Below, piece after piece: positions 16,306-42,364 of a stretch of 64,000 nucleotides of DNA (positions within the stretch are counted from its first letter, which is position 1; every line of letters starts with the position of its first letter). A program made the position numbers and the translations under genes. Below the pieces are notes generated by a model that worked only from the letters and a program-made list of their open reading frames with translations, was not told where the DNA came from and did not search any database. This DNA is from Flaccisagitta enflata (Eukaryota): assembly GCA_965153355.1 (NCBI GenBank), contig OZ231126.1, forward strand, positions 38,316,001 to 38,380,000, in the 5' to 3' direction.

Positions 16306-16341
<36 letters not shown>

Positions 16342-19052
16342 GTTGTTAATGTTGTTTTTGTTGTTAGTGTTGTTTTGTCGCTGATGTTGTTTTGTTGTTG
16401 ATGTTGTTTTGTTGTTAATGTTGTTTTTGTTGTTAGTGTTGTTTTGTCGTTGATGTTGTTTTGTTGTTGATGTTGTTTTGGTTGTTGATGTTGTTTTGTT
16501 GATGTTGTTTCGTTGTTGATGTTGTTTTCGTTGTTAGTGTTGTTTCGTTGTTGTTTTGTAGCCGTCTGGTTCGCGGAGCTGCTGCAATCTACATGGCGAG
16601 CGAGACTGCCGCTCACCATCTGGTGTGATTCTCGGTGATGAAGTCGCTGACAAAAGTTATTAAATGTTCAAATTTGTTGATGCTTGAAGACTTGAAGCCA
16701 ATATTGCATAAGAGATGAGTTTCAGGCTCGCGACTTCCGTCCACACATGTCATCAGCTTTACTAGCGCCTCCTCGCCACTGTCACCAATTTCTGTCTCGC
16801 GAAAACATCAATCAGTCCAATGATTCAGAGGTGGTTGAGCAATCAACTGTCATTTATGTAGCTGTCCCAAAATACCGCTTCGTGTCGGTCAGTCCGGGTT
16901 TGGCGATAGAGTTTGAGTTCTTCTAAATCTAATGTTTCATATTCTTTTTCTCCTATTTTGATTTCTAGCAAGTCTGGTTCTTTATTGTTTTCCTCTGTTT
17001 TGTCTCATTCTGTTTCTTTCTGTTCTGACTCACTAAATTGTTTTTTTTTCGATCTGCTCTGGTTCTATCTGTTCTGGCGCGCTTGATTGTTCTTTTTCAT
17101 TCTGTTCTTTTTCTATCTGTTCTGTATCATTCTGTTCTTCTTCTATCTGTTGTTCTTTTTCTATTTGTTCTGAAAGTAATACCACTTTTCTTCTGATTTT
17201 GATTCTCCTTTTGGTTCATTTTCCCCCTGATTCGTTTGTATTATCTTGTTCTTTCGTATGTTCTGATTCGTTTGTTTTTTCTTGTCTCTTTTAGACATGT
17301 TGTGACATGTCATTTGAATCTAAGATTACCGGATTAATTCATCTTATCATTCCAACGTCTATGTCGGGGATGGTAAATGATTAAATTCTCATAATCAATA
17401 AAGGTGAAGATAAATGAATGATGATATTTACAATGGAGATACTTTGAGAGTGAAACTTGCGGAACTTGCCCAAATTACAGACGAGCTAGTGCACTGCCTC
17501 TTATTTTCACTTACAAAGTTTTGGTTCTGTTTTGTTTCTGTTGTTCCCTTCTGAGCTCAAAGGCTCAGTGTCCAGCGTCGCGTCCGACTCGCCTCTGCGG
17601 CTTCAGGATTTCATACCATCTTAAGGTATGTGGGAGAGGTTCTGAGGTTTCCCTTCTAAGCATTAAGGCACAGTATCAAACGTTGTTTTCAACTCGCCTC
17701 TGCGGCTTCAGGATTTCATGCCATACTTAGCTGAGTGGGAGAGGTTCTGAGGTTCTAAGGTTCTGAGGTTCTGAGGTTCTGAGGTCTTAAGTTTTTTGGG
17801 ATCCCAAGGTTCAAAATTCTGAAGCTCTACAAGCATAACCCACATCTAGAATTATGCAAGTAGAATTGAATTGTTCACATTAGTATGCAAAACCATATGC
17901 TTGGTTTTCCGGTTAACCAAGTTGTATGGTGAAGCATGACTCGTTTCTAAAATGATCCATGGATTAATTTCTAAATGTTGAAGTCCCTTCATTCATTTCC
18001 TTTTTCTTGTGGGCATTGTGGGCCTTTAAATGAAATTAGTAATGGGATTGCATAAGGTTGCACAACAATACATGGTCATCTGAGAGACTTAAGTTTGTTG
18101 TAAGGAAGCGTGACCCACTTGTAGAGTCACGCGAATATCATGTTGTTTGTTAGGGAATGTGACCCGCTTGTAGAGTCACGCACATATCATGTTTCAGAGA
18201 GCATTAATTTAAGAGAGAAATGAAAATAATGCACAATATTTACAAATTGTCCTCATTTCTAAATGTGGATGCACAAGTGAGTCTGACACTAAGACTGAAG
18301 TTCGCGTAGAAATGGACTAAATGAGTTCTGAGATGCCATTGTTGTCCTGAGCCTCGGCTTCATCTTGAGCTATGGCGTCATCTTGAGCTATGGCGTCATC
18401 TTGAGCTGTGGCGTCACCTTGAGCTATGGCGTCACCTTGAGCTATGGCGTCATCTTGAGCTATGGCGTCATCTTGAGCCTCGGCGTCATCTTGAGCCTCG
18501 GCGTCATCTTGAGCCTCGGCGTCATCTTGAGCCTCGGCGTCATCTTGAGCCTCGGCGTCTTCTTGAGCCTCGGCGTCTTCTTGAGCCTCGGCGTCTTCTT
18601 GAGCCTCGGCGTCTTCTTGAGCCTCGGCGTCTTCTTGAGCCTCGGCGTCTTCTTGAGCCTCGGCGTCATCTTGAGCCTCGGCGTCATCTTGAGCTCGGCG
18701 TCATCTTGAGCCTCACTTGAGCCTCGGCGCATCTTGAGCCTCGGCGTCATCTTGAGCCTCGGCGTCATCTTGAGCCTCGGCCATCTTGAGCCTGGCGTCA
18801 TCTTGAGCTCGGCGTCATCTTGAGCCTCGGCGTCATTTTGAGCCTGGCGTCATCTTGAGCCTCGGCGTCATCTTGAGCCTCGGCGTCATCTTGAGCTCGG
18901 CGTCATCTTGAGCCTCGCGTCATCTTGAGCTCGGCGTCATCTTGAGCCTCGCGTCATCTTGAGCCTCGGCGTCATCTTGAGCCTCGGCGTCATCTTGAGC
19001 CTCGGCGTCATCTTGAGCCTCGGCGTCATCTTGAGCCTCGGCTTCTGAGTTG
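14005..19052. repeat. Large inverted repeat (arms ~14005-16138 and ~17061-19052, ~920-bp loop)
   Basis: 14852 gctcaggacaactatggcatctcagaactc pairs with 18323-18352. 16110-16138 aatcaaacgcgccagaacagatagaacc pairs with 17061-17088. Confidence 0.9.
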
Positions 19053-19789
19053 GCTCTGTTTGCACCTGTTTGGGACCTGCACCCTACTGTACTCGCTGCG
19101 GCTGTGGAGCTACTCGAGTCAGATGAATGATGATCAGGTTGACTGGATCGAGTTGGGTTGTGACGGGGTGGGGGTTCAATCTGACTTTGGTCAAAAATGG
19201 GGTTAGTTCGCTTGGGGTCATTGTTAAATTGAGGATTATCATGTGGCGGTGGCGGCGCCGGTAGAAGCGGCGGCGGCGCCGGTAGAGACGGCGGCGGCGC
19301 CGGTAGAGACGGCGGCGGCGCCGGTAGAGGTGGCGGCGGCGCCAGCGGAGGCGGCGCCAATGGTGGTGATGGCGGCGCTGATGGTGGCGGCGGCGCTGAT
19401 GGTGGCGGCGGTTTTGTAGCCGCAGTTCCGTCGAGGAAAGACTGAGTGAGAGTCGGATCAATAGCAACTAACGCTGGAATGTTATAGGCTGGATGACGTT
19501 CTAATGCGCACTGAATCAATCCTATCATGGTGTATATCGTTTCTTGTTCGTCTGAGGGGAAAGTTGGGGGTAATTTTGTAAGCTCACATTTCACCTCTTC
19601 GACCAGAGAGCGTAAATCATTCGCCCCTTTCTTAAATCGTGGTTTTGAATCGTCTCTGCCCATGTTGTGAACTCTCAGGAATTCCTGCATTAAGTCGGCA
19701 GCGTCACTGACAAGATCCTCGGCGTGACGGCTGACGTGTTTGGAGTCAACGTCATGATACGTCCCTTTACCCTGTGGTAAGCCAGACAT
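18317..19789 (-). CDS. ORF1b: divergent paralog of the ORF1 N-terminal domain with polyproline linker and the same DAEAQD tail
   Basis: The first ~105 aa align without gaps to ORF1a at about half identity by manual count (PQGxGxYH, EFL, RD, FK, ANDL, LPPxFPxDEQ, HPA). ORF track 18920-19789. The tail has several 1-nt indels and ends in the same GISELI*. Confidence 0.6.
18347..19052 (-). repeat. 18-bp tandem array, inverted copy
   Basis: ggcgtcatcttgagcctc units, with many 1-nt indels at ~18690-18960. Confidence 0.95.
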
Positions 19790-20413
19790 ATTGACGGGTT
19801 ACTTTCTGGGGTGAGCAGAGATTTGGACGATAAAATCGCCCTTCCGGAAGTCCTCAGTTTCCGAGGCGTAATCGGCGAAAATCTAGCTGATGCAGGACTC
19901 ATCGGGAGTTAATGATCTCGCTATTTTAGGTCAAGGTTTTACCAGCCGAAGTTAGGGAACGGGTCCCTGTGGCAGAGATGGAACTGGCGACGTGATTCTA
20001 TTCACTGTCTTTTTCACTTTATTTTCTATCTTTTATGCTCCTCGTTTACTCTTTTTCTTTTTATCTTTTGGGATTCTTTTTAACTTTCGAGTTCTTTCTT
20101 TCCAAGTTCTCTATTTCCTTACAAATTCTGCGAATATTATCTCTGACTCATAGTTTCTTTCATTTCTTCAACTTTCTAAGTTCTGAGTAGAAACAAATCG
20201 CGGAACTGGCCCGAGCTACAGACGAGCGGGCACGGCCGCTCTCCGTCCTCGGTTTGGCAGGGTGACTTCGTGTTTTCTATTTTTCTTTTAATTTTTTTTT
20301 TCTTTTTCTAATTCTTTCTTTCCGAGTATTTCTTCTTTTCTTTTTCTTTTCTTTTTCTTTTCTTTTTCTTCCTTTTCTTTTTCTTTTTCTTTTATTCGTC
20401 CTCTCCTTGGCCT

Positions 20414-21982
20414 TTGGCCGCCACTGGTAAGATAGCCGAGTGGAGGTGGAAAGTGAGACGCATTGCTATCATTAGGCGAGTCTTGTTAAAATTGAGGGAA
20501 GTGGTTAAGAATAAAAAAGAAAACCTGGTGAGTTCCAGATTGCGATCAGGAAATAATAAATCCAAAGAAAAATTACGCATTCATCTAAGTGAGGAAGAAA
20601 AGGAGGCTGCTGAGTATCTTTTGATCAGATCAATCCAAAGTGAGGAATTTGAGAAAGAAACAACCAAATTAATCAAATTAGGCATTTTCTCACCTAACAC
20701 TATCCACGATATGAACATCAAAGATACCAAATTAGCAAAATTATGCCCCTTCCTAGACTCACATAATGTCATGCGAGCAGGTGGTAGAATAGCCAAAGCT
20801 GAGTATCTGCCATACAACCACAGATACCCCATCATACTTCCAAACAGCACTTCAGAACCCATTAGGGCACTTATAAGGCACTACCACCAGGCCCATTACA
20901 AAAGATTCCACTGCACAGTGCAACAAACTTACTACCTTCTGAGAACCAAATATTTCATACTTGGTGGCAAAAATTCAGTCAGAAGTGTTTTGAGTAAATG
21001 CATAGTCTGTCAGAAACTTTCAAAACGCAAGGCAGCACAAAAGGAAGGTGATCTACCACTCGAAAGGATGGCAATGGTACCCCCATTTTACCATTGTGGT
21101 TTAGATTGCCTAGGACCCTTCCATTTGAGACATACAGGCAGAAACACCCGCAAGCAATTCGTGCTCATTGCATGCTGCATGTCCACTCGTGCCATTACTT
21201 TAGTGCCACTTCGCGATATGACCACCTCTAGCATCATAAATTCACTGATCAAAATCCACTCACAGTTTCCCGCCCTTAAAAATTTGTACTCTGACAATGG
21301 GTCAAATTTTAAGGGCGCAGACAGAGAAATTAGGGAAGCAGTGGCAGCTTGGAAAAAAGAGGATTTAGATGAGAGGTTAAGCGATCTGGAACTCACTTGG
21401 ACCTTTGGGCCGGCCTATTGTGGTAGCGCCGGAGGGAGTTGGGAGCGTTTAATAGGATTGTCAAAGAAACTATTAAGAAGTGTAATTGGTGACAAAAACA
21501 TCGATATTGAGGATTTTGAAACCTTGTTGGCAGGAGCCAGTTCTATCATGAATCGTCGTCCACTGATGCCGGCATCGGCAGATGTAGACGATGATCAGAT
21601 TTTAACTCCAAGTCATTTCCTCTATCCTTACCTATTCACTTCTGACGCTACTCATATTCTCCCTCCTCAGGCCGAACACAATCACGTCCTGAAACACGGG
21701 TGGAAGTGCTCCCAATTTCTCCTCGATCAATTTTGGCGAAGGTTCAGCACGGAATACATTCAAGAACTGATAAAAAGAAACAAACAAAACACGACGCCTA
21801 TCAAAGTAAACACGCTGGTCCTCATCGAAGACGTGGAAGCTTCGAGAGAATCATGGAAAGTCGGTCGAATAGTAGACATTCTCAACGGTGACAAAACCCA
21901 CGGAAGAAGGTTTAAAATCCGATTAGCCTCTGGGAAAACTATCGATCGTCATATATCATCGTGTGTAATTCTTGAGACCTAA
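20414..21982 (+). CDS. Isolated BEL/Pao integrase (RNase H-IN linker, HHCC, DDE core, DUF5641-like C-terminus)
   Basis: Pao-type motifs: LCPFLD...RAGGRI...YPIILP, H..YH...CIVC, GLDCLGPF (D), SDNGSNFKGA (D), GGSWERLIG (E), NRRPL, LTPSHFL, FWRRFSTEYI, WKVGRI. It is 5'-truncated, opening on TTG with no RT or RNase H upstream. Confidence 0.92.
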   Translation: MAATGKIAEWRWKVRRIAIIRRVLLKLREVVKNKKENLVSSRLRSGNNKSKEKLRIHLSEEEKEAAEYLLIRSIQSEEFEKETTKLIKLGIFSPNTIHDMNIKDTKLAKLCPFLDSHNVMRAGGRIAKAEYLPYNHRYPIILPNSTSEPIRALIRHYHQAHYKRFHCTVQQTYYLLRTKYFILGGKNSVRSVLSKCIVCQKLSKRKAAQKEGDLPLERMAMVPPFYHCGLDCLGPFHLRHTGRNTRKQFVLIACCMSTRAITLVPLRDMTTSSIINSLIKIHSQFPALKNLYSDNGSNFKGADREIREAVAAWKKEDLDERLSDLELTWTFGPAYCGSAGGSWERLIGLSKKLLRSVIGDKNIDIEDFETLLAGASSIMNRRPLMPASADVDDDQILTPSHFLYPYLFTSDATHILPPQAEHNHVLKHGWKCSQFLLDQFWRRFSTEYIQELIKRNKQNTTPIKVNTLVLIEDVEASRESWKVGRIVDILNGDKTHGRRFKIRLASGKTIDRHISSCVILET

Positions 21983-22602
21983 AGAACACAGTGGGATCGT
22001 CGACCCACGGGAGGACGCGTGTAATAGAATCATTTCATTTAGACTATGTTTTACAGTCAGTCGTGAGTTTCACATTTCAGTAATTAGTATTGAGTTCTGA
22101 GGTTTCCCTTCTAAGCATTAAGGCACAGTATCCAACGTTGTTTTCAACTCGCCTCTGCGGCTTCAGGATTTCATGCCATACTTAGCTGAGTGGGAGAGGT
22201 TCTGAGGTTCTAAGGTTCTGAGGTTCTGAGGTCTTAAGTTTTTTGGGATCCCAAGGTTCAAAATTCTGAAGCTCTACAAGCATAACCCACATCTAGAATT
22301 ATGCAAGTAGAATTGAATTGTTCACATTAGTATGCAAAACCATATGCTTGGTTTTCCGGTTAACCAAGTTGTATGGTGAAGCAAAACTCGTTTCTAAAAT
22401 GATCCATGGATTAATTTTTAAATAATGAAGTCACTTCATTCACTTCATTTTTCTTGCGGGCATTGTGGGCCTTTAAAATGAAATTAGCGATTTTATCTGA
22501 ATTTCTATCAAATGATGCGCAATATTTACAAATTGTCCCTATTTCTAAATGTCCATGCACAAGTGAGTCTGATACTAAGACTGAAGTTTGCGTAGAAATG
22601 GA

Positions 22603-25600
22603 CTAAATGAGTTCTGAGATGCCATTGTTGTCCTGAGCTATGGCGTCATCTTGAGCTATGGCGTCATCTTGAGCTATGGCGTCATCTTGAGCTATGGCGT
22701 CATCTTGAGCTATGGCGTCATCTTGAGCTATGGCGTCATCTTGAGCTATGGCGTCATCTTGAGCTATGGCGTCATCTTGAGCTATGGCGTCATCTTGAGC
22801 TATGGCGTCATCTTGAGCTATGGCGTCATCTTGAGCTATGGCGTCATCTTGAGCTATGGCGTCATCTTGAGCTATGGCGTCATCTTGAGCTATGGCGTCA
22901 TCTTGAGCTATGGCGTCATCTTGAGCTATGGCGTCATCTTGAGCTATGGCGTCATCTTGAGCTATGGCGTCATCTTGAGCTATGGCGTCATCTTGAGCTA
23001 TGGCGTCATCTTGAGCTATGGCGTCATCTTGAGCTATGGCGTCATCTTGAGCTATGGCGTCATCTTGAGCTATGGCGTCATCTTGAGCCTCGGCGTCATC
23101 TTGAGCCTCGGCGTCATCTTGAGCCTCGGCGTCATCTTGAGCCTCGGCGTCATCTTGAGCCTCGGCGTCATCTTGAGCCTCGGCGTCATCTTGAGCCTCG
23201 GCGTCATCTTGAGCCTCGGCGTCATCTTGAGCCTCGGCGTCATCTTGAGCCTCGGCGTCATCTTGAGCCTCGGCGTCATCTTGAGCCTCGGCGTCATCTT
23301 GAGCCTCGGCGTCATCTTGAGCCTCGGCGTCATCTTGAGCCTCGGCGTCATCTTGAGCCTCGGCGTCATCTTGAGCCTCGGCGTCATCTTGAGCCTCGGC
23401 GTCATCTTGAGCCTCGGCGTCATCTTGAGCCTCGGCGTCATCTTGAGCCTCGGCGTCATCTTGAGCCTCGGCGTCATCTTGAGCCTCGGCGTCATCTTGA
23501 GCCTCGGCGTCATCTTGAGCCTCGGCGTCATCTTGAGCCTCGGCGTCATCTTGAGCCTCGGCGTCATCTTGAGCCTCGGCGTCATCTTGAGCCTCGGCGT
23601 CATCTTGAGCCTCGGCGTCATCTTGAGCCTCGGCGTCATCTTGAGCCTCGGCGTCATCTTGAGCCTCGGCGTCATCTTGAGCCTCGGCGTCATCTTGAGC
23701 CTCGGCGTCATCTTGAGCCTCGGCGTCATCTTGAGCCTCGGCGTCATCTTGAGCCTCGGCGTCATCTTGAGCCTCGGCGTCATCTTGAGCCTCGGCGTCA
23801 TCTTGAGCCTCGGCGTCATCTTGAGCCTCGGCGTCATCTTGAGCCTCGGCGTCATCTTGAGCCTCGGCGTCATCTTGAGCCTCGGCGTCATCTTGAGCCT
23901 CGGCGCCATCTTGAGCCTCGGCGTCATCTTGAGCCTCGGCGTCATCTTGAGCCTCGGCGTCATCTTGAGCCTCGGCGTCATCTTGAGCCTCGGCGTCATC
24001 TTGAGCCTCGGCGTCATCTTGAGCCTCGGCGTCATCTTGAGCCTCGGCGTCATCTTGAGCCTCGGCGTCATCTTGAGCCTCGGCGTCATCTTGAGCCTCG
24101 GCGTCATCTTGAGCCTCGGCGTCATCTTGAGCCTCGGCGTCATCTTGAGCCTCGGCGTCATCTTGAGCCTCGGCGTTATCTTGAGCCTCGGCGTTATCTT
24201 GAGCCTCGGCGTCATCTTGAGCCTCGGCGTCATCTTGAGCCTCGGCGTCATCTTGAGCCTCGGCGTCATCTTGAGCCTCGGCGTTATCTTGAGCCTGGGC
24301 GTCATCTTGAGCCTGGGCGTCATCTTGAGCCTGGGCGTCATCTTGAGCCTGGGCGTCATCTTGAGCCTGGGCGTCATCTTGAGCCTCGGCGTCATCTTGA
24401 GCCTCGGCGTCATCTTGAGCCTCGGCGTCGGAATGAGCCTCGGCGTCGGAATGAGCCTCGATGTCGGAATGAGCCTCGATGTCGGAATGAGCCTCGATGT
24501 CGGAATGAGCCTCGACATTGGAATGAGCCTCGACGTCGGAATGAGCCTCGACGTCGGAATGAGCCTCGACGTCGGAATGAGCCTCGACGTCGGAATGAGC
24601 CTCGACGTCGGAATGAGCCTCGACGTCGGAATGAGCCTCGACGTCGGAATGAGCCTCGACGTCGGAATGAGCCTCGACGTCGGAATGAGCCTCGACGTCG
24701 GAATGAGCCTCGACGTCGGAATGAGCCTCGACGTCGGAATGAGCCTCGACGTCGGAATGAGCCTCGACGTCGGAATGAGCCTCGACGTCGGAATGAGCCT
24801 CGACGTCGGAATGAGCCTCGACGTCGGAATGAGCCTCGACGTCGGAATGAGCCTCGACGTCGGAATGGGCCTCGACGTCGGAATGGGCCTCGACGTCGGA
24901 ATGGGCCTCGGCTTCGGAGTGGGCCTCGGCTTCGGAGTGGGCCTCGGCTTCGGAGTGGGCCTCGGCTTCTGAGTGGGCCTCGGCTTCTGAGTGGGCCTCG
25001 GCTTCTGAGTGGGCCTCGGCTTCTGAGTGGGCCTCGGCTTCTGAGTGGGCCTCGGCTTCTGAGTGGGCCTCGGCTTCTGAGTGGGCCTCGGCTTCTGAGT
25101 GGGCCTCGGCTTCTGAGTGGGCCTCGGCTTCTGAGGGCCTCGGCTTCTGAGTGGGCCTCGGCTTCTGAGTGGGCCTCGGCTCTGAGTGGGCCTCGGCTCT
25201 GAGTGGGCCTCGGCTTCTGAGTGGGCCTCGGCTTCTGAGTGGGCCTCGGCTTCTGAGTGGGCCTCGGCTTCTGAGTGGGCCTCGGCTTCTGAGTGGGCCT
25301 CGGCTTCTGAGTGGGCCTCGGCTTCTGAGTGGGCCTCGGCTTCTGAGTGGGCCTCGGCTTCTGAGTGGGCCTCGGCTTCTGGGTGGGCCTCGGCTTCTGG
25401 GTGGGCCTCGGCTTCTGAGTGGGCCTCGGCTTCTGAGTGGGCCTCGGCTTCTGAGTTGGCCTCGGCTTCTGAGTTGGCCTCGGCTTCTGAGTTGGCCTCG
25501 GCTTCTGAGTTGGCCTCGGCTTCTGAGTTGGCCTCGGCTTCTGAGTTGGCCTCGGCTTCTGAGTTGGCCTCGGCATCTGAGTTGGCCTCGGCATCTGAGT

Positions 25601-27761
25601 TGGCCTCGGCATCTGAGTTGGCCTCGGCATCTGAGTTGGCCTCGGCATCTGAGTTGGCCTCGGCATCTGAGTTGGCCTCGGCATCTGAGTTGGCCTCGGC
25701 ATCTGAGTTGGCCTCGGCATCTTTTGTGGAAATATCTATTGCCCCTTTGATGTGGTTTTCATGGCCAAGGACGGTAGAAGAGTCTTCAGACTGACTTTGA
25801 TTGTTTGACTGAGCCCATACAGCCGTCCCAAATTTTGATGACGCAAATAATTCATGGCTTATCTGCACCTTAACCGGAGTAGGATGAAACAAAGCGGGCT
25901 GGGCGTATGATGGTGCGTAACTCACTCCAGATGCGCGCAAAAGGGTTGGTGAGTCCGAGTCAATCTGTCTGGAATGTTGATTGACATTTTGACGTTGTGG
26001 TGAATCCCAAGAGGGAGTGGGTAATCTGAGTATGGGGTCATAATACGTGGGAGGCTCTGGCCAAGATGCATGAGTTTTAGGCCGGACTGAGTTTTGAGCA
26101 GAAGTAGAATCGCGATTGCCACAGAAAAGCCTTGCAAGGTTTTCCACTTCCCTACTCTGTGGTTGTGGTTGGGTGGTGTGTGGTTGTGGTTGGCTTGCGG
26201 AACTCGCCCAAGCTTCAAGCGAGCTGGGCCCTGCCGCTCGCCATGAATTTTGGTTTTCGATTATTTGCGCTGAATGCTGAGTCTGTTGTGATTGGGACTG
26301 TGGTCTGTATCCGTCTGTGTCTAGCTGTGGTCTGTATCTGGCGGTGCTGCAAGTGGGGGAAGAGGTACCCAAGTCTATTAGAGCAAATTGGCAATCAGTC
26401 TGAGCCGGCCGAGAATGAGACTGAGCTGGCCGAGAATGAGACTGAGTAGGCCGAGAATGAGACTGAGCAGACTGAGAATGAGGCTGAGCAGGCTGATAAC
26501 AAGCCAAGTCCAGAAGTGGTCCAGATCGATCTTGGGTGCGCTCAGATTGGTTCTGATTAGACATAGTCTGTTCAGAATTGTCATGAAATTGAGACTGAGG
26601 AACATAGTTCTGATTCTGTATCAGTAAGTGATCAGTTTGAGTCTGTTGAGTACGAAACTGGATCTGGGAACAGAAAGTCTGAGGCTGAGGAGGGCTACAT
26701 TCGGCCGAAGAACCTGAATCTGAATCTGTATCAGAATCTGAATCTGTATCAGAATCTGAATCTGTATCAGAATCTGAATCTGTATCAGAATCTGAATCTG
26801 TATCAGAATCTGAATCTGAATCTGAAGCAGGAGTGTGTGGATGACTTTCACCCAATCTTTCTGTGTGGCCCTGTCTTTGCTGATTCAAAGGAGTTTCGTC
26901 GAGAGGATTATTGATTATCAGTTCCCTCATTAAATCGACCGCAGCACTGAGGTTGGCTGCAATTGCGTTCAAAGAATTGATTTTAGTCTGTTTGACCGCG
27001 TCATCATAGCGCAAGTGTTTTTGATGATTGCGTTCATTTAATTTCTGACCTCTAATAATCTGGTCATGGTTTCTGTGAGGGGCGTTGTTTTCTAGCACAA
27101 GTGGGATCGTTGGTTCTTTGGACGGCCGTAACGTGCGTGATGCTTGGTTTGTTTGACGTGATACCGTTGCAATGGTGGAGAGGCCATCGAAGGAACTGGC
27201 AACTTGTGAGGGAATACCGAGCGGGTCAAAGAACCAATTGGAAATGACTGATTCAACTTGGTCAGAACTGGCCATAGGCTCGTTTTGTAACTGATGGGAG
27301 ACTCGGGAATTATCGCTGAATGCGATGAGGGAAGGGGGACTCTGTGAGATGGATCGTGAGGAATGGTGAACGCGAGAAATCACGGGTGGAGCCCTTTCAA
27401 TTGGGAAGGCGGGAAGCGAGGGATTATTTGCAGTATTTCCGCTTGATGGAATGTAAAGGGCTGGGTGTCCTTCTAATTCATTCTGAATCCTTCCTATCAG
27501 TGAGTCTATTCTTTGTTGTTCATCTGGTGGAAAGGATGGGGGTAATTCTATCAGTTCGAATTTCATTTTTTGGACCTGAGAAAATAGATCATTTGCCCTC
27601 TGCTTAAACTTTGGCTCCGGATAGTCTCTGGCCAAGCCGTGAGCTATCAGGAATTCCCTCAAAGTCTTGGTGGCGTCATCGACAAGGATCCTAGCATAAT
27701 CGCGGCTATGCTGGGGGCTAACCTCATGATACATCCCGCTACCTTGTGGTGAGCGAGGCAT
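22603..27761 (-). CDS. ORF1a': inverted second copy of ORF1a with a ~3.1-kb acidic 18-bp repeat tail
   Basis: N-terminal ~680 aa nearly identical to 11642+. Three small deletions at ~25135-25200 (1+1+2 nt) shift the frame. Restored, it ends DAIAQDNNGISELI* at 22603. Confidence 0.6.
22633..25720 (-). repeat. ~3.1-kb 18-bp tandem array arranged in blocks of variant units
   Basis: Successive blocks encode DAEANS, EAEANS, EAEAHS, DVEAHS, DAEAQD and DAIAQD in the restored frame. Confidence 0.97.
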
Positions 27762-29686
27762 ATTGATGGGCTATTCTCTGGGTTAGCAAAGAGACTCGAA
27801 CTTGCTTGCCAATTTAGGCCCACCTCGTCATTTTTTGAAGTTTTAGAGCTATAGACGAGCTCTTAAGAAAGTTTTCTAACAGTTACTTGCTCCCAAGCCA
27901 AAATTCCTCGGATGCCGAGGCATAATTGACTGAATTGATGTAGGATGCAGAACTGAATCAACTCAACTGAATTGAGTTTCATTGATAACAAATACTTCTA
28001 TTTCCCAGGTCAAATGGATTCTAACTTTCGAGTTTTTTCTAAATTTCGAGTTCTTTCTAACTTTCGAGTTCTTTCTTTCCAAGTTCTTTATTTCCTTCCA
28101 AGTTCTGCGAATTTAATTCTGATTCATAGTTTCTTTCATTTCTTCGTCGTTCTGAGTAGGAACAGGATTGCGGAACTGGCCCGAGCTACAGACGTGCGGG
28201 CACGGCCGCTCTCCGTCCTCGGGTTGGCAAAGAGACTTCGTGTTTTCTATTTTTTTTCACTTTTTCTTTTTTTTTCTTTTCTAATTTTTTTTCCGAATAT
28301 TCTTTCTTTTCTTTTTCGTTCTTTTCTTTTTCGTTCTTTTCTTTTTCTTCTTCTTTATCTTTCGCGTCTTTTTTTCCTACTGTTCTCTTTCTTTCTTTCT
28401 ACCTTTCCGAGTTCTTTTCTTTTTTTACGTTGGAATTTAAGGTTTTGCCGCGCAAGCTACTACATGCTTTAAGGGTTCTGTTTTCACTGATTCTTTTCCT
28501 CTCTAGATTCCAACTGACATCCCGCGATCGTCGGGCGTAGTGTCCCCGTGAAAGTACATCCCGCGGCCCTTGGGCCTGCGGGACATACGGGACTGTTTAG
28601 AACCCTCTGATGAACAGAGAGACTCGAACTTAGGTGCCAAAATAGGCCCAACTCTCGAGATTTGTTTGTTATCAAAGCTGCAAACGAGCTCTGAAAAAAT
28701 GTCCCTAATAATTACTAACGATCTCAAGTTGATGATCCTCGGTGACCGAGGCGTAATCAACAAGAATGAACTGAGTGCAGAACCGAGTCAGTTCGATTAA
28801 ATCGAGTTCCTCGGTAAACTGCGCCTTTAAGGTTCCTGATGATTTCTGACAGATGCTCGATGTTCTCAGTCCGAAGGTCCTCGATTATTCCATTGTTCCT
28901 TTCATTAAATTCGCTGACTGACTAATGGTCCAAATTACCCGGTGAGGGGTTCTTCGTGAAGTTGACGATTCTAAAATCTAGTAATCCTGACTAACTGACA
29001 AGGCCGAATTACCCGGTGAAGGGTTCTTCGAAAAAATAGACGTTTCTAAAAATCTAGGTGATCTGACTGACTGACAGGGGGACGAATTACCCGGTGTGGG
29101 GTTCTTCGAGTTTCTAGTTTCTAGTAGAATGGATTTCTAGCTAGCCGAGGTCACTCGCGAACGAGGGACCTCAGCAGAAGACTGCTAAATGCTTGTAATT
29201 GACTAACTGACAATTCAAGTTCCTTCGGTGACCGAAGATCCTTGAATATTAATGGTACTAGCTTGCTAGATTGTGCAAATCGACGTGTGCAAATGCGGGT
29301 GCTTTCCGATGGTCACCGGGTGAGCGGGGACTGTCGGTCTGATTTTCTAATTACTCGCGTAAGTTTTTCTGTTCACGCGTTGCCTCGGAGAAGAAAGACT
29401 CGGTCGAGTATTTCTCCGTCTTCTGTTCAGATTTCTTTTTTTGTGAGATACGTGTCTTTGTTCTTGATCGCGTGAGTTTCTTGGTTACGTTGGGCATCGA
29501 TTCTGAGCTGATTCTCGATCGGTTTCTTCTTGATCAATTTGGGCGTTAATTCTGAGTGGGTTCTTGATCGTCGTCGAATACTCACCAATCGAGCGAACAT
29601 TGAGGACGGTTCTTTGTCTTCTTGGGTTCTGATCAACGATAGACACACACAAAAGAGCCAGGGCATGCGCTATTAAAAGCTTTAAC
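27762..29686 (-). repeat. Inverted 5' leader of the internal unit
   Basis: Reverse complement of 9976-11641 with an extra ~200-bp segment. Confidence 0.88.
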
Positions 29687-30741
29687 TGTATTGTCGTGTA
29701 CTAAACTAATGCCCAATGCCTCTAGCTCTCCTGTATGCGGCTGCGCCGCTCGTGACTGAACCTCAATCCCACGAATAATACAGAGCGATCTCAATGCGAT
29801 CTTCTTTTATTTGAACGTAGGCGAAGCAGTTAAAGCTGCAAGACAGTGAAAAATGAAAGGAGCTAATGAAAATGCAGCTAAATATACAGATATCTAGCCA
29901 GAAATACTCAATAATACTGAAAGTGACCAAATACTGAACGAATAATGACGGAATAATGACGGAATAATGACAAAAATACGGGAAAAATAAGCCGTAAACG
30001 GGAAAAATATGGCTAAGTACGGGAAAAATAATACGAAATATGAACCCAAATCAAGCTCTCACCTTTGTTTGGCGCTCAGGGAAGTCAAATAGGCGTCCTA
30101 ATAAGGCTCGTATCAGTGCAAAATATGGTGAAAAGCGTCTATTTAATAGGCGAAAGAGTAGTTTTTAGCAATATGAGCGTCTTTTCTAGATTCTGTAAGG
30201 AAATATCGTCGGCAAAATGGCGGTAACTAAGCAACGAAAGGTTCTAGAAAATCATAGAATTCTATGGAAATCTTCAATTTCCCTTCGAGGTTCGATTGCG
30301 TCAGCCAGTAAAAATGCCAATATCGGTCAATTGAGGGCGCTACGAAATCGGTCTAAAATAGCCCAAATGACAAAAGGCGCAATGAATTCATAACAGGAAC
30401 GAAATGCAAGGCAAGAAAATATCATACGGACAAACATGAGCAATTTGGACAGAAATAAGGACAAATCAGACGGACAAATCAATAGATGCATGAAATAAAC
30501 GAATAAATGAGTCAATAAATCAATCAATAAATCTAAACGATGTCAATAAATGCGATCAGAATAAATCAAACCTGTAATAAATGCAAACGATAAAAACCAA
30601 TCTAAATAAAACGGTCAAATCTAAGTAAAATATCTAAATATAATCAAAAATATCAATCAATAAATCCAAATCTAAGGCCTAAATACCAACCAGATAATCC
30701 GTAAGAAATGATAGAATTGGTGCAAGACCATGCTTCACGAC
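29687..30741 (-). repeat. Internal inverted, diverged LTR of the same family
   Basis: Reverse complement of the terminal LTR with many substitutions and indels. It ends in ...ATACA followed by the same gttaaagct site. The first T of the TG terminus is missing at the junction with the La cassette. Confidence 0.9.
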
Positions 30742-30758
30742 TCGTTCAAATTGTTCGT

Positions 30759-31862
30759 TCATCGAAGAGAAGCGGATTCGACCTTCATCGGTTCGGACTT
30801 CGGCTCGGCCTTGGCATCGTTACGCTTATGGAAACCGCCTCCGCCGCCTCCGCCGCCTCCACGGCCGCCGCGACCGCCTCTTCCGCCGCCGCGACCTCCT
30901 CTGCCGCCTCGGCCGGCATCGCGTCTGCTCTGATGGTCGCGTCGGAATTCCTCCCAGTATTCCGTCTCTTCCTCTCCTTCCAACAATTTGAGCTCTAGCT
31001 CTTTCTCCTCGATGGTGATTTTGCCTTCTAATTGTTTGATAACGTCGGCCGCGGAATTCTCTCCGTTGAATCGCACTTTTATGGTCGACTCCTCTTTGTT
31101 CACCGTCACCCAAGCAACTTTTTTCTCCGCGGTCTCTGAAAAGGCCGATTTGACGGCGTTGACGTCGAGGCCTTGGATGTCGGCGTTGACAATTTTAAGA
31201 ACGGCGGCTTTCTCTTTCACGCCAATTTCCTCTTTTTTCGGCGCCGATTCTTTGGATTTTCCACCGTGTCTCTTTTCTTTTAACTCGGCGTTCTTCGCCG
31301 TCAAGTAGTCTTTTTGGAATTGGATAATGAGATCTTCTGCGTCGTCTTCTTTGAATTTCTTACAGTCTGAAGACAAGATTTTGTTGCAATCGTCCACGGA
31401 CTTGTACGTGACGAAAATCGAACCCTTGAACTGAGACTTTTCCTTGATTCGTCTCATGAAAACATTCTCGGACATGCAGACTTTGTCGACGAAAGGAATG
31501 ATGTCGTCCAAAGAGGCCGTCACCGGAAAGCCCTTCATGTAAAGAGTTCTGCTCTGAACTTCGTCCTTCCAATTGCTGTCCACGACGGGAATCTTTCTTT
31601 CTGGATTGCGTCTGATTTTGCTCTTGTCTTCGTTAACCTCGAGCAAGCCGCTGGAAGATTTTGTGAGAGCGTCCGCGATCACCGCTTCCTCCTTTGATAA
31701 CTGAGCCAAACGGTTGAATTTCAGCATGACTTCCAAGGATATCCATCCCTCGTCCTTCTTGATCTCTTCCTGTAAGAACTTATCGCGACCGAGGTTGTGA
31801 TCGCCGAAATAATATTCAACTTGTCTGATAATTTTCGACTCGAGTTCTGAAATGACCGCCAT
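30759..31862 (-). CDS. La: Intronless La (SSB, lupus autoantigen) homolog captured inside the LTR element
   Basis: La motif (KIIRQVEYYFGDHNL.RDKFL...GWISLEVMLKFNRL), RRM1 (RTLYMKGFP, FKGSIFVTY), an RRM2-like region and an RGG-rich basic tail. 367 aa, uninterrupted. The last codons and stop lie in element-derived sequence. Confidence 0.93.
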   Translation of the reverse strand: MAVISELESKIIRQVEYYFGDHNLGRDKFLQEEIKKDEGWISLEVMLKFNRLAQLSKEEAVIADALTKSSSGLLEVNEDKSKIRRNPERKIPVVDSNWKDEVQSRTLYMKGFPVTASLDDIIPFVDKVCMSENVFMRRIKEKSQFKGSIFVTYKSVDDCNKILSSDCKKFKEDDAEDLIIQFQKDYLTAKNAELKEKRHGGKSKESAPKKEEIGVKEKAAVLKIVNADIQGLDVNAVKSAFSETAEKKVAWVTVNKEESTIKVRFNGENSAADVIKQLEGKITIEEKELELKLLEGEEETEYWEEFRRDHQSRRDAGRGGRGGRGGGRGGRGGRGGGGGGGGGFHKRNDAKAEPKSEPMKVESASLR

Positions 31863-31964
31863 GATTATTGGATAATGACCGGATGGACGGCGTTGTTCAA
31901 AATAAGAAAACTGATAATGGTCTCCTTTATTTTAAACAAGTGAAGTAGTAGAAATTAGCTCAGT

Positions 31965-33240
31965 TTAATTTTTTTTTTCTTTTTCTAATTCTTTCTTTCC
32001 GAGTATTTCTTTTCTTTTCTTTTTTCTTTCTTTTTCTTTTCTTTTCTTTTCTTTTCTTTCTTTCTTTCTTTCTTTCTTTTCTTTTTCTTTTTTCTTTTTC
32101 TTTCTTTCTTTTCGTTGGAATTAAAGGTTTTGCCGCGCGAGCTACTACATGCTTAAAGGGTTCTGTTTTCACTGATTTTTTTCCTCTCTAGATTCAAACT
32201 GACATCGTGCGATCGTCGGGCGTAGTGTCCCCGTGAAAGTACATCCCGCGGCCCTTGAGCCTGCGGGACATACGGGACTGTTTAGAACCCTCTGATGAAC
32301 AGAGAGACTCGAACTTAGGTGCCAAAATAGGCCCAACTCTCGAGATTTGTTCTGAGATTAAAGCTACAAACGAGCTTTAAAATGCCTTAAATGACGTGTG
32401 ATCTCAGCTTGAAAGTCCTCGGTTACCAAGGCCTAATCAGCTGTTGTCCTTGACTTGATGTCCTGACTGACTGACAGGGCCGAATTACCCGGTGAAGGGT
32501 TCTTCGAAAAAATAGACGTTTCTAAAAATCTAGGTGATCTGACTGACTGACAGGGCCGAATTACCCGGTGAAGGGTTCTTCGAAAAAATAGACGTTTTTA
32601 AAAATCTAGGTGATCTGACTGACTGACAGGGGGATGAATTACCCGGTGTGGGGTTCTTCGAGTTTCTAGTTTCTAGTAGAATGGATTTCTAGCTAGCCGA
32701 GGTCACTCGCGAACGAGGGACCTCAGCAGAAGACTGCTAAATGCTTGTAATTGACTAACTGACAATTCAAGTTCCTTCGGTGACCGAAGATCCTTGAATA
32801 TTAATGGTACTAGCTTGCTAGATTGTGCAAATAGACGTGTGCAAATGCGGGTGCTTTCCGATGGTCACCGGGTGAGCGGGGACTGTCGGTCTGATTTTCT
32901 AATTACTCGCGTAAGTTTTTCTGTTCACGCGTTGCCTCGGAGAAGAAAGACTCGGTCGAGTATTTCTCCGTCTTCTGTTCAGATTTCTTTTTTTGTGAGA
33001 TACGTGTCTTTGTTCTTGATCGCGTGAGTTTCTTGGTTACGTTGGGCATCGATTCTGAGCTGATTCTCGATCGGTTTCTTCTTGATCAATTTGGGCGTTA
33101 ATTCTGAGTGGGTTCTTGATCGTCGTTGAATACTCACCAATCGAGCGAACATTGAGGACGGTTCTTTGTCTTCTTGGGTTCTGATCAACGATAGACACAC
33201 ACAAAAGAGCCAGGGCATGCGCTATTAAAAGCTTTAACTG
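31965..33240 (-). repeat. Inverted copy of the element 5' leader placed upstream of La
   Basis: Near-identical to 28430-29688 (offset 3552 over its distal part). Starts with the LTR-terminal CA and gttaaagct. Confidence 0.88.
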
Positions 33241-33259
33241 ACGCTTTCTTGTTCTTTTT

Positions 33260-34629
33260 CTGAACAAATCGAAAAAGAACAGATAGAAGAACAGAATGAT
33301 ACAGAACAAATAGAAGAACAGAATGATACAGAACAAATAGAAAAAGAACAGAATTAAAAAGAACAATCAAACGCGCCAGAACAGATAGACACAGAACAGA
33401 TCAAAAAAGAACAATTTAGCGAGTCAGAACAGAAAGTAACAGAACAAGACAAAACAGAAGAAAACAATGAAGAACCAGACTTGCTAGAAATCAAAATAGG
33501 AGAAGAAGAATATGAAACATTACATTTAGAAGAAGAGTTAGGGATTGACAGGGACCTTCCTCTCAACCCGTACAGAACAAATCGTCACAGTACCCGAGGA
33601 AGGAGAACATTATGGCATGTGGAACGACGAAGTCTACCACACACTCTGTCGGCAAACCTGGATTGACTGACACGAAGCGGCATTTTGGGACAGCTACATA
33701 AATGACAGTTGATTGCTCAACCACCTCTGAATCATTGCACTGATTAATGTTTTCGCGAGACAGAAATTGGTGACAGTGGCGAGGAGGGTGATTTGGCGCT
33801 AGTAAAGCTGATGACATGGGTGGACGGAAGTCGCGAGCCTGAAACTCATCTCTTATGCAATATTGGCTTCAAGTCTTCAAGCATCAACAAATTTGAACAT
33901 TTAGTAACTTTTGTCAGTGACATCACCAAGAATTATGCCAATGGTGAGCGGCAGTCTCATCTCGCTTTGAAGTTGGAGGAGTCCTGCGAACCAGATGGTA
34001 ACAACACTAACTACGAGACAACATTAACAACAAAGGACAACAACAATCTAACAACAACCATGGCGGGAAATCTACAACAATAATTCATCGACGACAAAGA
34101 ACAATTTACTTCTCAGCGGAATCGACTTATCAATCCGCTTTCCTTTGACGAACGAACAATTACAGCGAATCAATTCATATTTCCATTCATTCGGCGAACG
34201 GACTCTCCAGCGGATTAAATCAATCCGCGTTTCATCGATCGAAGCGCTTACTGCTAACTAACTCTGTCAAGACTACTTTTAACTAATGATCTAGCGCTTT
34301 TGGTCATCTCTCATCGACGATTTGAAGCTTTTGGTTCCGGCAAGATTCGAAAGATACAGATTCTCCCACCCCCCCACCCGCGCATACCAGTAACTAACTT
34401 AACACCTGAAACAACTAATAAACTCTATGTAGCTTGCGCACATTTGAATTGAATTATTAATGCGACGCAGAGCACAAGCGCTTTAAGAAGACGACGAAAG
34501 AATTTATTCTCAAGATTTCACTACACTGTGATATACTCCAATTGTTACTCAGGAAATTGGACAAGACCAGGCTTCTAGACTAGTTTAGTTTTTTCCCCAA
34601 ATTGGTATATTTCATATATGATTTGACTC
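33260..34629 (+). repeat. Non-coding 3' internal region of the element
   Basis: 33260-34207 is the reverse complement of ~16142-17172. 33260-33388 repeats 16027-16136 directly. Confidence 0.85.
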
Positions 34630-34643: not shown

Positions 34644-35644
34644 TGTCACGAAGCATGGTCTTGCACCAATTTTGTCTATTCTTACGGATTATTTGGTTTG
34701 TATTTAGGCCTTAGATTTTGATTTATTGATTGATATTTTGGTTATATTAAGATATTTTACTTAGATTTGACCATTTTATTTAGACTGGCTTTTATCGTTT
34801 GCATTTATTACAGGTTTGAATTATTCTGGTTTCATTTATTGACATTGCTTAGATTTATTGATTGATTTATTGCCTCGTTTATTCGTTTATTTCAGGCATT
34901 TATTGATTTGTCTGTCTGATTTGTCCTCATTTCGGTCCAAATTGTTCATGTTTGTCCGTATGATCTTTTCTTGCTTTGCATTTTGTTTCTGTCATGAATC
35001 TCCTGCGCCTTTTGTTATTTGGGCTATTTTAGACCAAATTCGTAGCGCCCTCATTTGACCATTATTTGCATTTTTTACTGGCTGACGCAATTCGGCTTCG
35101 AAGATTCCATGATATTTTATCGCGTTCTAGAACTTTTTGTTGCTTATATACCGCCATTTTGCCGGCAATATTCTCACGGACTCTAGAGAGACGCTTCGAA
35201 TTACTAAAAACTACGTTTCCGTATATTAAATAGACGATTTTTACCATTATTTGCATCGATACGAGCATTATTGGGACGCTTTTCGACTTCCCTTAGCGCC
35301 AAACAAAGGTGAGAGCTTGGTTTGGGTCCGTATTTTTTATTATTTTTCCTGTACTTAGCCTTATTTTTCCTGTTTCCGGCTTATTTTCCCCGTATTTAGC
35401 CTCATATTTTGTCATTATTCTGTCATTATTTGGTCAGTATTTTGTCACTTTTAGTAGTATTCATTATCTCCTTTATTTTCACTGTCTTGCAGCTTTAACT
35501 AACTTCGACTACCGTTCAAATAAAAGAAGATTTCGTTACGATCGCTCTGTATTTGTTTGGGGATCGAGGTTTAGTCACGAGCGGCGCAGCCGCATACAGG
35601 AGAGCTAGAGGCATTGGGCATTTAGTTTAGTACACCAGAATACA
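34644..35644 (+). repeat. 3' LTR (1001 bp)
   Basis: Copy of 8975-9975, preceded by the PPT and followed by TSD GATGA. Confidence 0.95.
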
Positions 35645-36394: not shown

Positions 36395-36610
36395 CTGGTA
36401 AGAGTGCGATGCGACAAAACCAGGGCCCATGGCATTGATTCGAAATTATGTACCTTCAAGGAAACTTTAAGTACCTTTAAGACTAGCGGCCACAGATTTA
36501 TTGTGGAGTGCGAATAGAACTGGAGTAATGAGGGAAGTCATAGTTCAAATAATACTTATCTCAAAATTATCTCATGGCTTCGAAACTTACTTGAAGGCAT
36601 CCATTTTCTA

Positions 36611-37189
36611 CAGTAGATGTCGTCTAGACTTGGAAATTCGGGGGAATTCATTACGGGAAGACAAATATACTTAAAAGACTGATATCTAGAATATAAACTA
36701 ATAAAAGGATGCTTTATTGTCCATGGGTGTTAGTTGCCATGGAAACACATTTCCATGTATTCATGCTAAAGTATCAATATTTGAGAAATTTTTTGAGGGA
36801 ACATTGTTTAAAATAAGATTTGCTATAACTTTCCCACAATATGTTTTGTAAGAATATCGCTTGTTTAGCCGTTGCTAGGGTGCGTAACTATGTGTGACAG
36901 CCCTGTGATGCTCCTTAGCAACCGCCAAACAAGCAATATTTTTACAAAACATATTGTGGGAAAGTTGTGACAAATTTTATTTCAAACAACGTTCCCTCAT
37001 AAAATTTTTGAAATATTGATACTTTAGCGGGAAAACATGGAAATGTGTTTCCATGGCAACCAACACCCGTCACTTGTGGGCAATAAAGCATCTTTTTATC
37101 AGTTTAAATTTCAAATAACAGTCTTTTAAGTGTATTTGTCTTCCTGTTATGAATTTCCCCCTATTTCCAAGTCTAGATGACATCTACTG
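36611..37189. mobile_element. Palindromic MITE, TA-flanked
   Basis: TA|cagtagatgtcgtctagacttggaaat ... atttccaagtctagatgacatctactg|TA, self-complementary along its whole length. Confidence 0.85.
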
Positions 37190-37226
37190 TATTTAGCATC
37201 AGAAAACTCAATTCCATGTTTGGCAC

Positions 37227-40876: not shown

Positions 40877-41651
40877 CTTTGAAAATATGTAACACAATCA
40901 ATCTTTCGTCATTGATATTTGACTTTTACATTGCCGCCGTGTTGAATTTTTAAGTTAAGGCAATTAGAACCGACTTTCTTGGGTTTTTATGGACATAACG
41001 AAGTCCAGAACCAAACACTCTTTTATCATCCAATGTAAGACTTTACAAAACCTATTCATCATTCAGGGAACTTTTTAGCTAGCATTCAAGGTAGACATTC
41101 ATACTATTTTTCGATGAGTACTTGCATCTCTATAAGAGGTCGTGTCCGTTGGTCTGTCGGTCTGTCGGTTGGTGACGCAAACCATTAGCTCGCAAAATCC
41201 AAGGCCCTTTCACCCAAAAAGCAACAAATACATATTCCTTTACTCATTCTTTCACTTAATCATTCATTCATTCATTCATTTATTCATTCATTCATTCATT
41301 CGTTCATAAACAACATTCATTACCAAAAAACGCTCATTGATAGAGGACGCATCGTTAGCCTTCTTGGCCTTGTTGCGTCCTCGCACATCTATAAGCGTTC
41401 ATGTCCGTCGGTTGGTTGGTCTGTCTTTCACGCAAACCCTTAAACCACGCAAATCGGCTTGTCCTTTCCAAACCCATCCATTCGTTAATTCATTCATTCT
41501 TTCATTCGTTCGTCATTTATTCACTCATTCATTCATTCACATGTTTCTTTTTTTGTTCGGGCTTGCTTTTTTTCTTTACTTACTTTCTTTTTTTTTCTAA
41601 CAAGTAGAGATGTAGAAACGATTGACCGCTTCCAATTTAGATAATGGGATA

Positions 41652-42269
41652 CAGCACCTTCCGAGTAAACCCGGCTAGAACTGGAGGATTAACTTTTGTT
41701 ACTTTAATTTCATTTTCCATACTTCATTTTTTGTATTTAACTTAATCAAAAGATGCTTAATTCCTTGAACATATTTTGCTGTCAAAAAAAAATAATCTGT
41801 GAAATCAAAGTGCATGAAGACATCAATATGGAGTGATCTAACCCAGACCATTAGATTCAGCAGAAAATTTTACCTATCCTAGACTACAAAAACAGCTAAA
41901 TCAGATAATTATTTTAGGTTCTATAGCCATTTAAAGTTTTTAAGGACAATTGTCCTAAATTATTTTGAGACAATTGTCCTTAAAAACCTAAAATAGCTGT
42001 AAAACCTGAAATAATTGTCTGATTGAGCTGTTCTTGTGCTCTAGGATAGGTAAAATTTTCTGCTGAATTCAATGGTCTAGGTTAGAACACTCCATATTGA
42101 TGTCTTCATGCACTTTGATTTCAAGAGTTATTTTTTTGACAGCCAATTATGTTCAAGGAATTAAATATTTTTTAATTGAGTTAGATACAAAAAATGAAGT
42201 TTGGGAAATGAAAATAAAGTAACAAAAATCAATCCTCCAGTTTTTGTCGGGTTTGCTCGGAAGGTACTG
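41652..42269. mobile_element. Palindromic Tc1/mariner-type MITE
   Basis: TA|cagcaccttccgagtaaacccg ... cgggtttgctcggaaggtactg|TA, with arms pairing to the centre near 41960. Confidence 0.85.
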
Positions 42270-42364
42270 TAGCTACCAGTATTTGAACTGTAAAATGGAA
42301 GCGGAAGCTGTGGAAGCGGTATTAAAATTGACGGCTTCCACATCCCTGCTAGCAAGTCACAAAC

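Follow-up and report, generated by a model that had tools for sequence, protein, structure and literature searches.

The window analysed here, a 64,000-nucleotide (nt) stretch of Flaccisagitta enflata DNA (GenBank assembly GCA_965153355.1, contig OZ231126.1, positions 38,316,001 to 38,380,000 of the forward strand), is eukaryotic, repeat-rich and gene-poor. On its minus strand an intact open reading frame (ORF) for a truncated La (SSB) protein is flanked on both sides by sequence of a single long terminal repeat (LTR) retrotransposon family, and stands in place of the first ORF of that element (ORF1) and the remainder of its interior. The features that make up this La unit are as follows.

30759-31862, minus strand: La ORF, ATG to TGA, 367 amino acids, intact, with La motif, RRM1, xRRM/RRM_3 and RGG tail
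30775-31939, minus strand: segment homologous to La mRNA, 1165 nt, comprising 77 nt of 5' untranslated region (5'UTR) and codons 1-363, colinear with RNA contigs
33240 to 31958, minus strand: element leader (copy A'), from the first base after an LTR (GTTAAAGC...) to an A-rich/(GAAA)n tract
31940-31957, minus strand: about 18 nt at the 5' joint that match neither the element leader nor La mRNA contigs
30742-30778, minus strand: spacer, about 37 nt long, which is the element's 3' internal end (the tail of the small element ORF, ORFx, including its stop region)
29686-30741, minus strand: inner LTR, about 1 kb, about 85-91% identical to the outer LTRs of the surrounding nest

The presence of an intact 367-residue La ORF with La motif, RRM1, an RRM2-like domain (xRRM) and RGG sequence, as given in the initial annotation, is borne out by Pfam and by alignments with human La chains. 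Pfam places the La domain at residues 11-67 (E 5.6e-21) and RRM_3 (xRRM, PF08777) at residues 230-318 (E 1.6e-14), while RRM_1 at residues 107-164 scores 17.9 bits, under the 20.7-bit Pfam cut-off. The same RRM1 is aligned by human La chain 1s79_A over residues 99-197 (E 4.2e-16). Additionally, human chain 9nf8_B aligns with residues 5-346 (E 1.6e-56), the human La-module chains 2vod/1zh5 align with residues 5-191 (E 1.3e-51), and a glycine-arginine (RGG) run is found near the C-terminal end. In the alignment, La-motif residues Q, YY, D, F and F, which we take to be the residues that contact UUU-3'OH, are identical to those of human La. By these comparisons the ORF has both the La-module (La motif followed by RRM1) and the C-terminal xRRM of a genuine La.

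Of the 8000 candidates scored in a protein search with the La ORF, 500 had E <= 0.001. The best match, P0001, is a 423-residue protein at 98% identity from a 1837-nt contig, and is followed by ten proteins (P0002-P0011) at 59-69% identity; named La relatives reach at best about 41% (a mollusc, then nematodes and arthropods). A scan of metagenome contigs with six peptide patterns from the La protein returned 374 pattern matches and no La relatives.

Comparison with P0001 defines how much of La was copied. Residues 1-362 of P0001 align with 31862 to 30768 at 98% identity (tblastn), and the two proteins are colinear through ..KVESA, after which the window ORF ends with SLR and a stop while P0001 continues for about 60 residues. 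Thus, the window ORF shares the La motif, RRM1 and xRRM with genuine La (human, PDB 9nf8, 2vod, 1zh5) across residues 5-346, but differs from it in lacking the 60 C-terminal residues found in its expressed counterpart. These residues carry two KRPSGAEA..KKVKT repeats, the KR..KKVK motifs of which resemble a bipartite nuclear localization signal (NLS) and, judging from this pattern, may serve as one. The window ORF does not have this NLS-like tail, and the 60 residues have no match anywhere in the window (tblastn). The copy therefore covers 363 of the 423 codons of the expressed form, so that its earlier description as near full-length holds for all except the last 60 codons. The 3'UTR and poly(A) are also missing; the stop codon is followed by ACGAACAATTTGAACGAG and then by the LTR, and neither a poly(A) run nor a target-site duplication (TSD) occurs around La in the window sequence.

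The region 30300-33300 was matched in at least 22 public sequencing runs from 11 studies, mostly marine metagenomes and metatranscriptomes, and four of these runs were compared in detail: DNA contigs (X1), raw polyA RNA reads (X23, which carries the organism label of X1) and two sets of marine metatranscriptome contigs (X5 and X10), which carry no strand. For X23, 12,162,974 records were read, about 6 in 100 of the run. Contigs of this kind show the presence rather than the absence of a structure. The X5 and X10 RNA contigs are colinear with the window over 30775-31939, which agrees with the reported absence of introns relative to the mRNA. Past 30775 they encode (in reverse complement) AASETNGVEA, as does P0001, and this 30-nt run-on is absent from the 64-kb window. 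Past 31939, the first 15 bases of the X5 contig (opposite 31940-31954) are unlike the window. Since parental RNA continues beyond both ends of the window homology, the expressed full-length La gene is, by these contigs, located elsewhere than the window. The copied piece begins within the 5'UTR and holds neither promoter nor downstream gene sequence. At 31872, which is 10 nt ahead of the ATG, X5 La also has an insertion of 8 nt that X1 DNA lacks; together with the differing 5'-most UTR in X5, this suggests 5'UTR polymorphism in the parent population.

The flanks of the La segment belong to an element unit that was defined by self-comparison of the window together with alignments, and which consists of an LTR (about 1 kb, TGT..ACA), a leader of 1.7-1.9 kb, ORF1, a downstream region, ORFx and a second LTR. 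Upstream of La, leader copy A' is 97% identical over 779 nt to the neighbouring leader copy and begins exactly at the LTR/internal boundary (..ACA followed by GTTAAAGC..). It breaks off about 500 nt before the position at which ORF1 would start, whereas three other leader copies continue to ORF1. The claim that La replaces ORF1 downstream of an element leader is thereby upheld. Between leader and La lie the roughly 18 unassigned bases of the 5' joint, which may be filler or an unsampled 5'UTR allele.

Downstream, the 3' joint can be read to the base. Homology to La extends to 30775 and homology to the element begins at 30778, with the 4-nt sequence AATC (30778-30775) common to both. As ORFx ends with ..FIQSASL and a stop, and the La ORF with ..VESASLR and a stop, the joint is an in-frame fusion (VES from La, ASLR from the element) in which the last 4 codons and the stop of the La ORF derive from ORFx. 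The source of the 37-nt spacer is identified by two X1 DNA contigs that contain the LTR and the spacer through 30778 and then run on into non-La sequence. The window has this run-on and the spacer side by side once more at 16239 to 16181, which is the end of ORFx (2 mismatches in 23 nt for the run-on; 0 of 100 shuffles match), and therefore the spacer is the element's own 3' internal end. Its copy after ORFx, at 16217 to 16181, is identical at about 35 of 38 bases. The spacer shows no similarity to the region before the outer 3' LTR; the score of 12 was under the mean of 15.2 for 500 random window segments. The inner LTR that follows is itself flanked on both sides by internal element sequence, with the spacer upstream and a leader downstream. 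It contains polyadenylation-type motifs, ATTAAA at 30147 and, 947 nt past the La stop codon, AATAAA at 29811-29806; the LTR after La does indeed supply AATAAA as had been noted. Both La joints are at internal positions of the element in sense order and not at LTR ends. Thus, the leader-La-LTR architecture is present as first described, except that the unit has no 5' LTR of its own.

Capture of La by an LTR element is well supported by this anatomy, and we put at about 65% the probability that a partial La mRNA copy without introns was built into the cDNA (complementary DNA) of a non-autonomous LTR retrotransposon. What the window shows directly is the anatomy, together with its joints and the truncation; from these we infer the RNA route and the order of events. 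Template switching, which the initial annotation had already put forward, fits the internal sense-order joints, the 4-nt microhomology at the 3' joint and a partial mRNA copy lacking poly(A). During minus-strand synthesis, reverse transcriptase would have copied the 3' LTR and the last 37 or so internal bases, then switched at the 4-nt AATC to a co-packaged La mRNA and copied it nearly to its 5' end. A second switch would have led from the La mRNA back into the A-rich tract of the element leader, with La thereby substituting for ORF1 and the rest of the element interior. The one-LTR cDNA that would result (leader-La-spacer-LTR) may then have entered by homologous recombination with a resident element, which is the weakest part of the model. 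Entry by recombination is suggested by the absence of a 5' LTR, by a start exactly at the boundary between LTR and internal sequence, and by an LTR that is followed by the leader and ORF1 of another copy.

Recombination of Ty1 cDNA gives tandem elements with one LTR in common. The order observed here, a single LTR between two internal regions, is the same interior-LTR-interior order as in Ty1 tandem elements. For the La unit, recombination is put forward only as the simplest route to a unit that starts exactly at the LTR/internal boundary.

The closest parallels are metazoan retrocopies generated by LTR-mediated retroposition, in which a partial mRNA copy takes the place of an element's internal ORFs (Tan et al. 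2016, Genome Res 26:1663, PMC5131818). In that study, 25 of 29 junctions are reported to show microsimilarity, with a median of 6 bp, three junctions have de novo fillers of 2-26 bp, a mosquito case (BEL18_AG) shows 3' truncation with no poly(A) and no TSD, and such retrocopies are often co-transcribed with their LTR element (PMC5131818). The La unit shares with these retrocopies a partial mRNA without poly(A) replacing element ORFs, flanks in sense orientation and microsimilarity at a joint. It differs in having a single LTR, common to the downstream copy, in the unassigned bases at its 5' joint, and in that co-transcription is not seen (PMC5131818). Maize Bs1 and the retrocopies in rice LTR elements, which are named in that study (PMC5131818), are likewise non-autonomous with host fragments fused to the element; Bs1 is reported to carry both LTRs and several host fragments and to be expressed, whereas the La unit has a single host gene and no expression evidence. 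Processed pseudogenes made by long interspersed nuclear elements (LINEs) are also intronless copies of host mRNA. In contrast to these, the La copy has no poly(A) or TSD, is truncated at its 3' rather than its 5' end, and is embedded in LTR-element sequence. Host-gene capture by LTR elements is already known, and the La copy adds an example. Among the papers listed on La (SSB) with retrotransposons or retrogenes, none describes capture of La by an LTR element in its title or in the opening lines of its abstract.

Several observations weigh against capture through an element cDNA. The La unit has neither an LTR upstream of 33240 nor a TSD, and these absences count because an insertion made by integrase should have both; the two LTRs and TSD that accompany an LTR-mediated retrocopy are thus lacking. 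No microhomology is readable at the 5' joint across its roughly 18 unassigned bases. The three window joints (30775/8, 31940-57 and 33240/1) are missing from the X1 DNA contigs, and the structure rests on one assembly. In X23, six reads were found, all on the GGC repeat and all running into unlike sequence, with zero La-specific reads. Finally, the loss of introns that would classically prove an RNA route is not demonstrated. Four listed X1 DNA contigs of parent type show no interruption in 747 of the 1165 La bases; on this evidence the parental La may itself be without introns there, or intron-poor.

This last point bears on a DNA-level origin, in which break repair or ectopic recombination would have inserted a fragment of an intron-poor La gene into the element nest with no RNA intermediate. 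With no intron in those 747 parent-type bases, intron loss provides no argument for an RNA route, and the 26.7 kb around La are heavily rearranged, with inverted blocks and palindromic arms (14902-16141 and 18302-17058). Moreover, end-joining can leave bases such as those at the 5' joint. However, two random breaks would place La in sense exactly between a leader and the last 37 or so bases before an LTR only by luck, whereas La in place of the element interior is the arrangement that template switching predicts. The piece also starts in the 5'UTR without promoter or downstream gene sequence. We therefore regard DNA-level capture as unlikely.

A chimera made in assembly, by mis-joining of La and element reads in a repeat-rich region, is less probable still. 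It would explain why X1 contains none of the three joints and why X1, X5 and X10 all carry a non-window letter at four sites, namely 30813, 30975, 31197 and 31464, and the complete identity of the outer LTRs over 1002 nt could also come from collapsed or duplicated repeats. Yet the joints fall at positions that are meaningful for the element (one in the A-rich tract of the leader, the other in the tail of ORFx, 37 nt ahead of the LTR), and the 3' joint is in frame with microhomology. X1 contains 0.58 of the sampled window words and is clearly another individual or population by this measure; consequently the missing joints do not disprove the structure, and nothing independent confirms it. The listed X1 contigs of non-window haplotype (30772-31006, 31147-31302, 31424-31578 and 31730-31930) depart from the window at 30772 and 31930.

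The copy could alternatively be a working gene, transcribed by read-through or from a promoter in the leader, that supplies a truncated La to element or host, or that yields antisense small RNAs against La. The ORF is intact with its La-motif residues as in human La, the four window-private differences are all synonymous, and co-transcription of such retrocopies is frequent as cited above (PMC5131818). Against this, there is no sense LTR upstream of the La unit, and no RNA contig or read covers the leader (31957-33300) or spans a joint in X5, X10 or X23, a weak test since these runs may not contain the La insertion. All RNA contigs carry the non-window letter at the four private sites, La occurs once in the 64-kb window, and seven upstream ATGs are present in the 1378 nt of leader and UTR, the last being weak on its own because normal copies have 12-14 before ORF1. 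The synonymous private sites are more simply those of a captured allele. We consider a function for the copy highly doubtful. The suggestion that it could give rise to antisense or small RNAs against host La is geometrically possible, La being antisense to the outer LTR pair.

The differences between the window and the runs can be accounted for in the same way. Altogether there are 44, of which 40 are listed; the 26 listed ones within coding sequence comprise 20 synonymous and 6 non-synonymous changes. The runs X1, X5 and X10 are about as far from each other as each is from the window, which places the window La within the allelic spread of the parent population, and the 20:6 split mostly reflects polymorphism in that population. 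An intact frame and a synonymous bias are expected of a young copy of one parental allele. As a separate observation, the lack of La-specific X23 reads is odd for a housekeeping gene if the label of that run is the true source of the window.

It is very improbable that leader-La-LTR is a present or recent mobile La-transducing element in which a tail-stripped La acts as a cytoplasmic RNA chaperone that would protect, translate or package element RNA. The proposal that the element carries its own RNA chaperone finds no support in a unit with no 5' LTR, no leader RNA, RNA contigs that continue into parental sequence, and no La-bearing copy besides this one in the 64 kb. A native La gene split by a transposon is ruled out, as the C-terminal 60 residues and the 30-nt run-on are absent from the 64 kb and because an integrase insertion would abut LTR ends while both joints are internal.

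With capture by template switching as the favoured origin, the La copy, which lacks its C-terminal 60 residues, a promoter-bearing LTR and any evidence of expression, is most likely a young passenger. On present evidence there is one silent La copy in a rearranged element nest. It nevertheless represents a clean young host-gene capture in a marine planktonic animal, with a 3' joint resolved to the base and a fusion in frame to an element ORF, and it is further evidence that LTR-mediated retroposition occurs widely in species other than the usual models. The cargo is unusual. La acts as an RNA chaperone and is known to be exploited by retroelements and RNA viruses, and the copy is without the tail that probably directs La to the nucleus; if translated, it would give a protein without the two KR..KKVK NLS-like motifs. 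Should further copies or transcripts exist, they would constitute a natural experiment in which a mobile element gains a host RNA-handling factor, and a true transducing element would parallel retroviral oncogene transduction with an RNA-handling host factor as cargo. The locus is chiefly useful as an annotated example, and it cautions that function can hardly be read from an intact ORF when the copy is this young.

Within a rearranged, LTR-bounded nest of 26.7 kb (8975-35644), the La unit is in inverted orientation; the other features of the nest are listed below.

8975-9975, plus strand: outer 5' LTR, TGT..ACA, with GATGA just upstream
34644-35644, plus strand: outer 3' LTR, preceded by the polypurine tract AAAAACGGGGGGAG and followed by GATGA
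11642-14557, plus strand; 23070-27761, minus strand; 18923-19798, minus strand: ORF1 copies, repeat region open in several frames
22094-29685, minus strand: element copy 2, which has the inner LTR in common with the La unit and holds a leader, ORF1 (27761 to 23070) and part of the downstream region
16181-16667, minus strand: ORFx copy, small 3' ORF (16200-16667) plus a 37-nt tail, ending ..FIQSASL and stop
33811-34083, plus strand: ORFx copy, small element ORF just upstream of the 3' LTR
20394-21982, plus strand: BEL/Pao-type integrase fragment, Integrase_H2C2 and DUF5641, uninterrupted frame of about 520 amino acids

Across 1002 aligned nt the two outer LTRs show no difference (100% identity), and they are bounded by the 5-bp TSD GATGA. 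LTR word depth in X1 is about 10,000 versus about 200 for La. The LTR family is thus real and abundant, as indicated by its TGT..ACA termini, polypurine tract, 5-bp TSD on the outer pair and high X1 depth. Inside the nest, the order on the plus strand is copy 1 (LTR, leader, ORF1 and downstream region), an inverted block (16181-33240), and a 3' internal region with the second ORFx. The inverted block, 17 kb in length, extends on the minus strand from the first internal base after an LTR to the last internal bases before an LTR, yet both of its ends lack an LTR. Within it lie the La unit, the inner LTR, copy 2, the reversed BEL/Pao integrase fragment and a further partial copy. T-rich direct copies (16029-16145 and 33288-33399, 86% identity) are found around the inverted block, and inverted repeat arms of 1.25 kb (14902-16141 and 17058-18302, 93.7% identity) set two element copies in tail-to-tail orientation on either side of ORFx. 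The nest arrangement may have arisen by aberrant reverse transcription, by recombination that followed insertion, or through misassembly.

ORF1 encodes a long low-complexity protein, the length of which varies through 18-nt tandem repeats (974 versus 1566 codons). It has no Pfam family, one near relative and no usable match in an Atlas search. Its first 115 residues or so belong to a small family with 16 relatives at E <= 0.001, and this N-terminal region is predicted to form a three-helix bundle (pLDDT 77) that has no PDB match with E <= 0.001. No Pfam family was found at cut-off for 7 of these 16 relatives, for a further protein (P0124) or for ORFx, the conserved N-terminal stretch of which (MT.VDGSREPETHLLCNIGFKSSSINKFEHL) leads into Q/T/N-rich repeats.

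In the 105 of 149 window ORFs of at least 90 amino acids that were scanned, no protease, reverse transcriptase or RNase H was found, and the La-bearing family therefore appears to be non-autonomous; the other 44 are overlapping frames that lie in ORF1, in the tandem repeats or in La. Apart from the integrase fragment at 20394-21982, which falls short of a BEL/Pao pol, no pol-like sequence was found in the window. The closest relatives of this fragment have 50-58% identity and are on short contigs, and the Pao peptidase (PF05380) is present in 6 of its 41 homologues. As for a primer-binding site, no tRNA gene occurs in the window and no obvious TGG.. site follows the LTR; Rfam gave 0 matches in the window.

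Outside the nest, a stretch at 51966-52244 (minus strand) weakly resembles SLC52, the riboflavin transporter family, at a score below the cut-off (E 6.3e-4, 19.3 bits versus 27.9), and may be an exon of a host gene. Three palindromic stretches of 0.6-0.75 kb (36609-37191, 41650-42271 and 53267-54014), with arms 76-87% identical, may be foldback-type elements.

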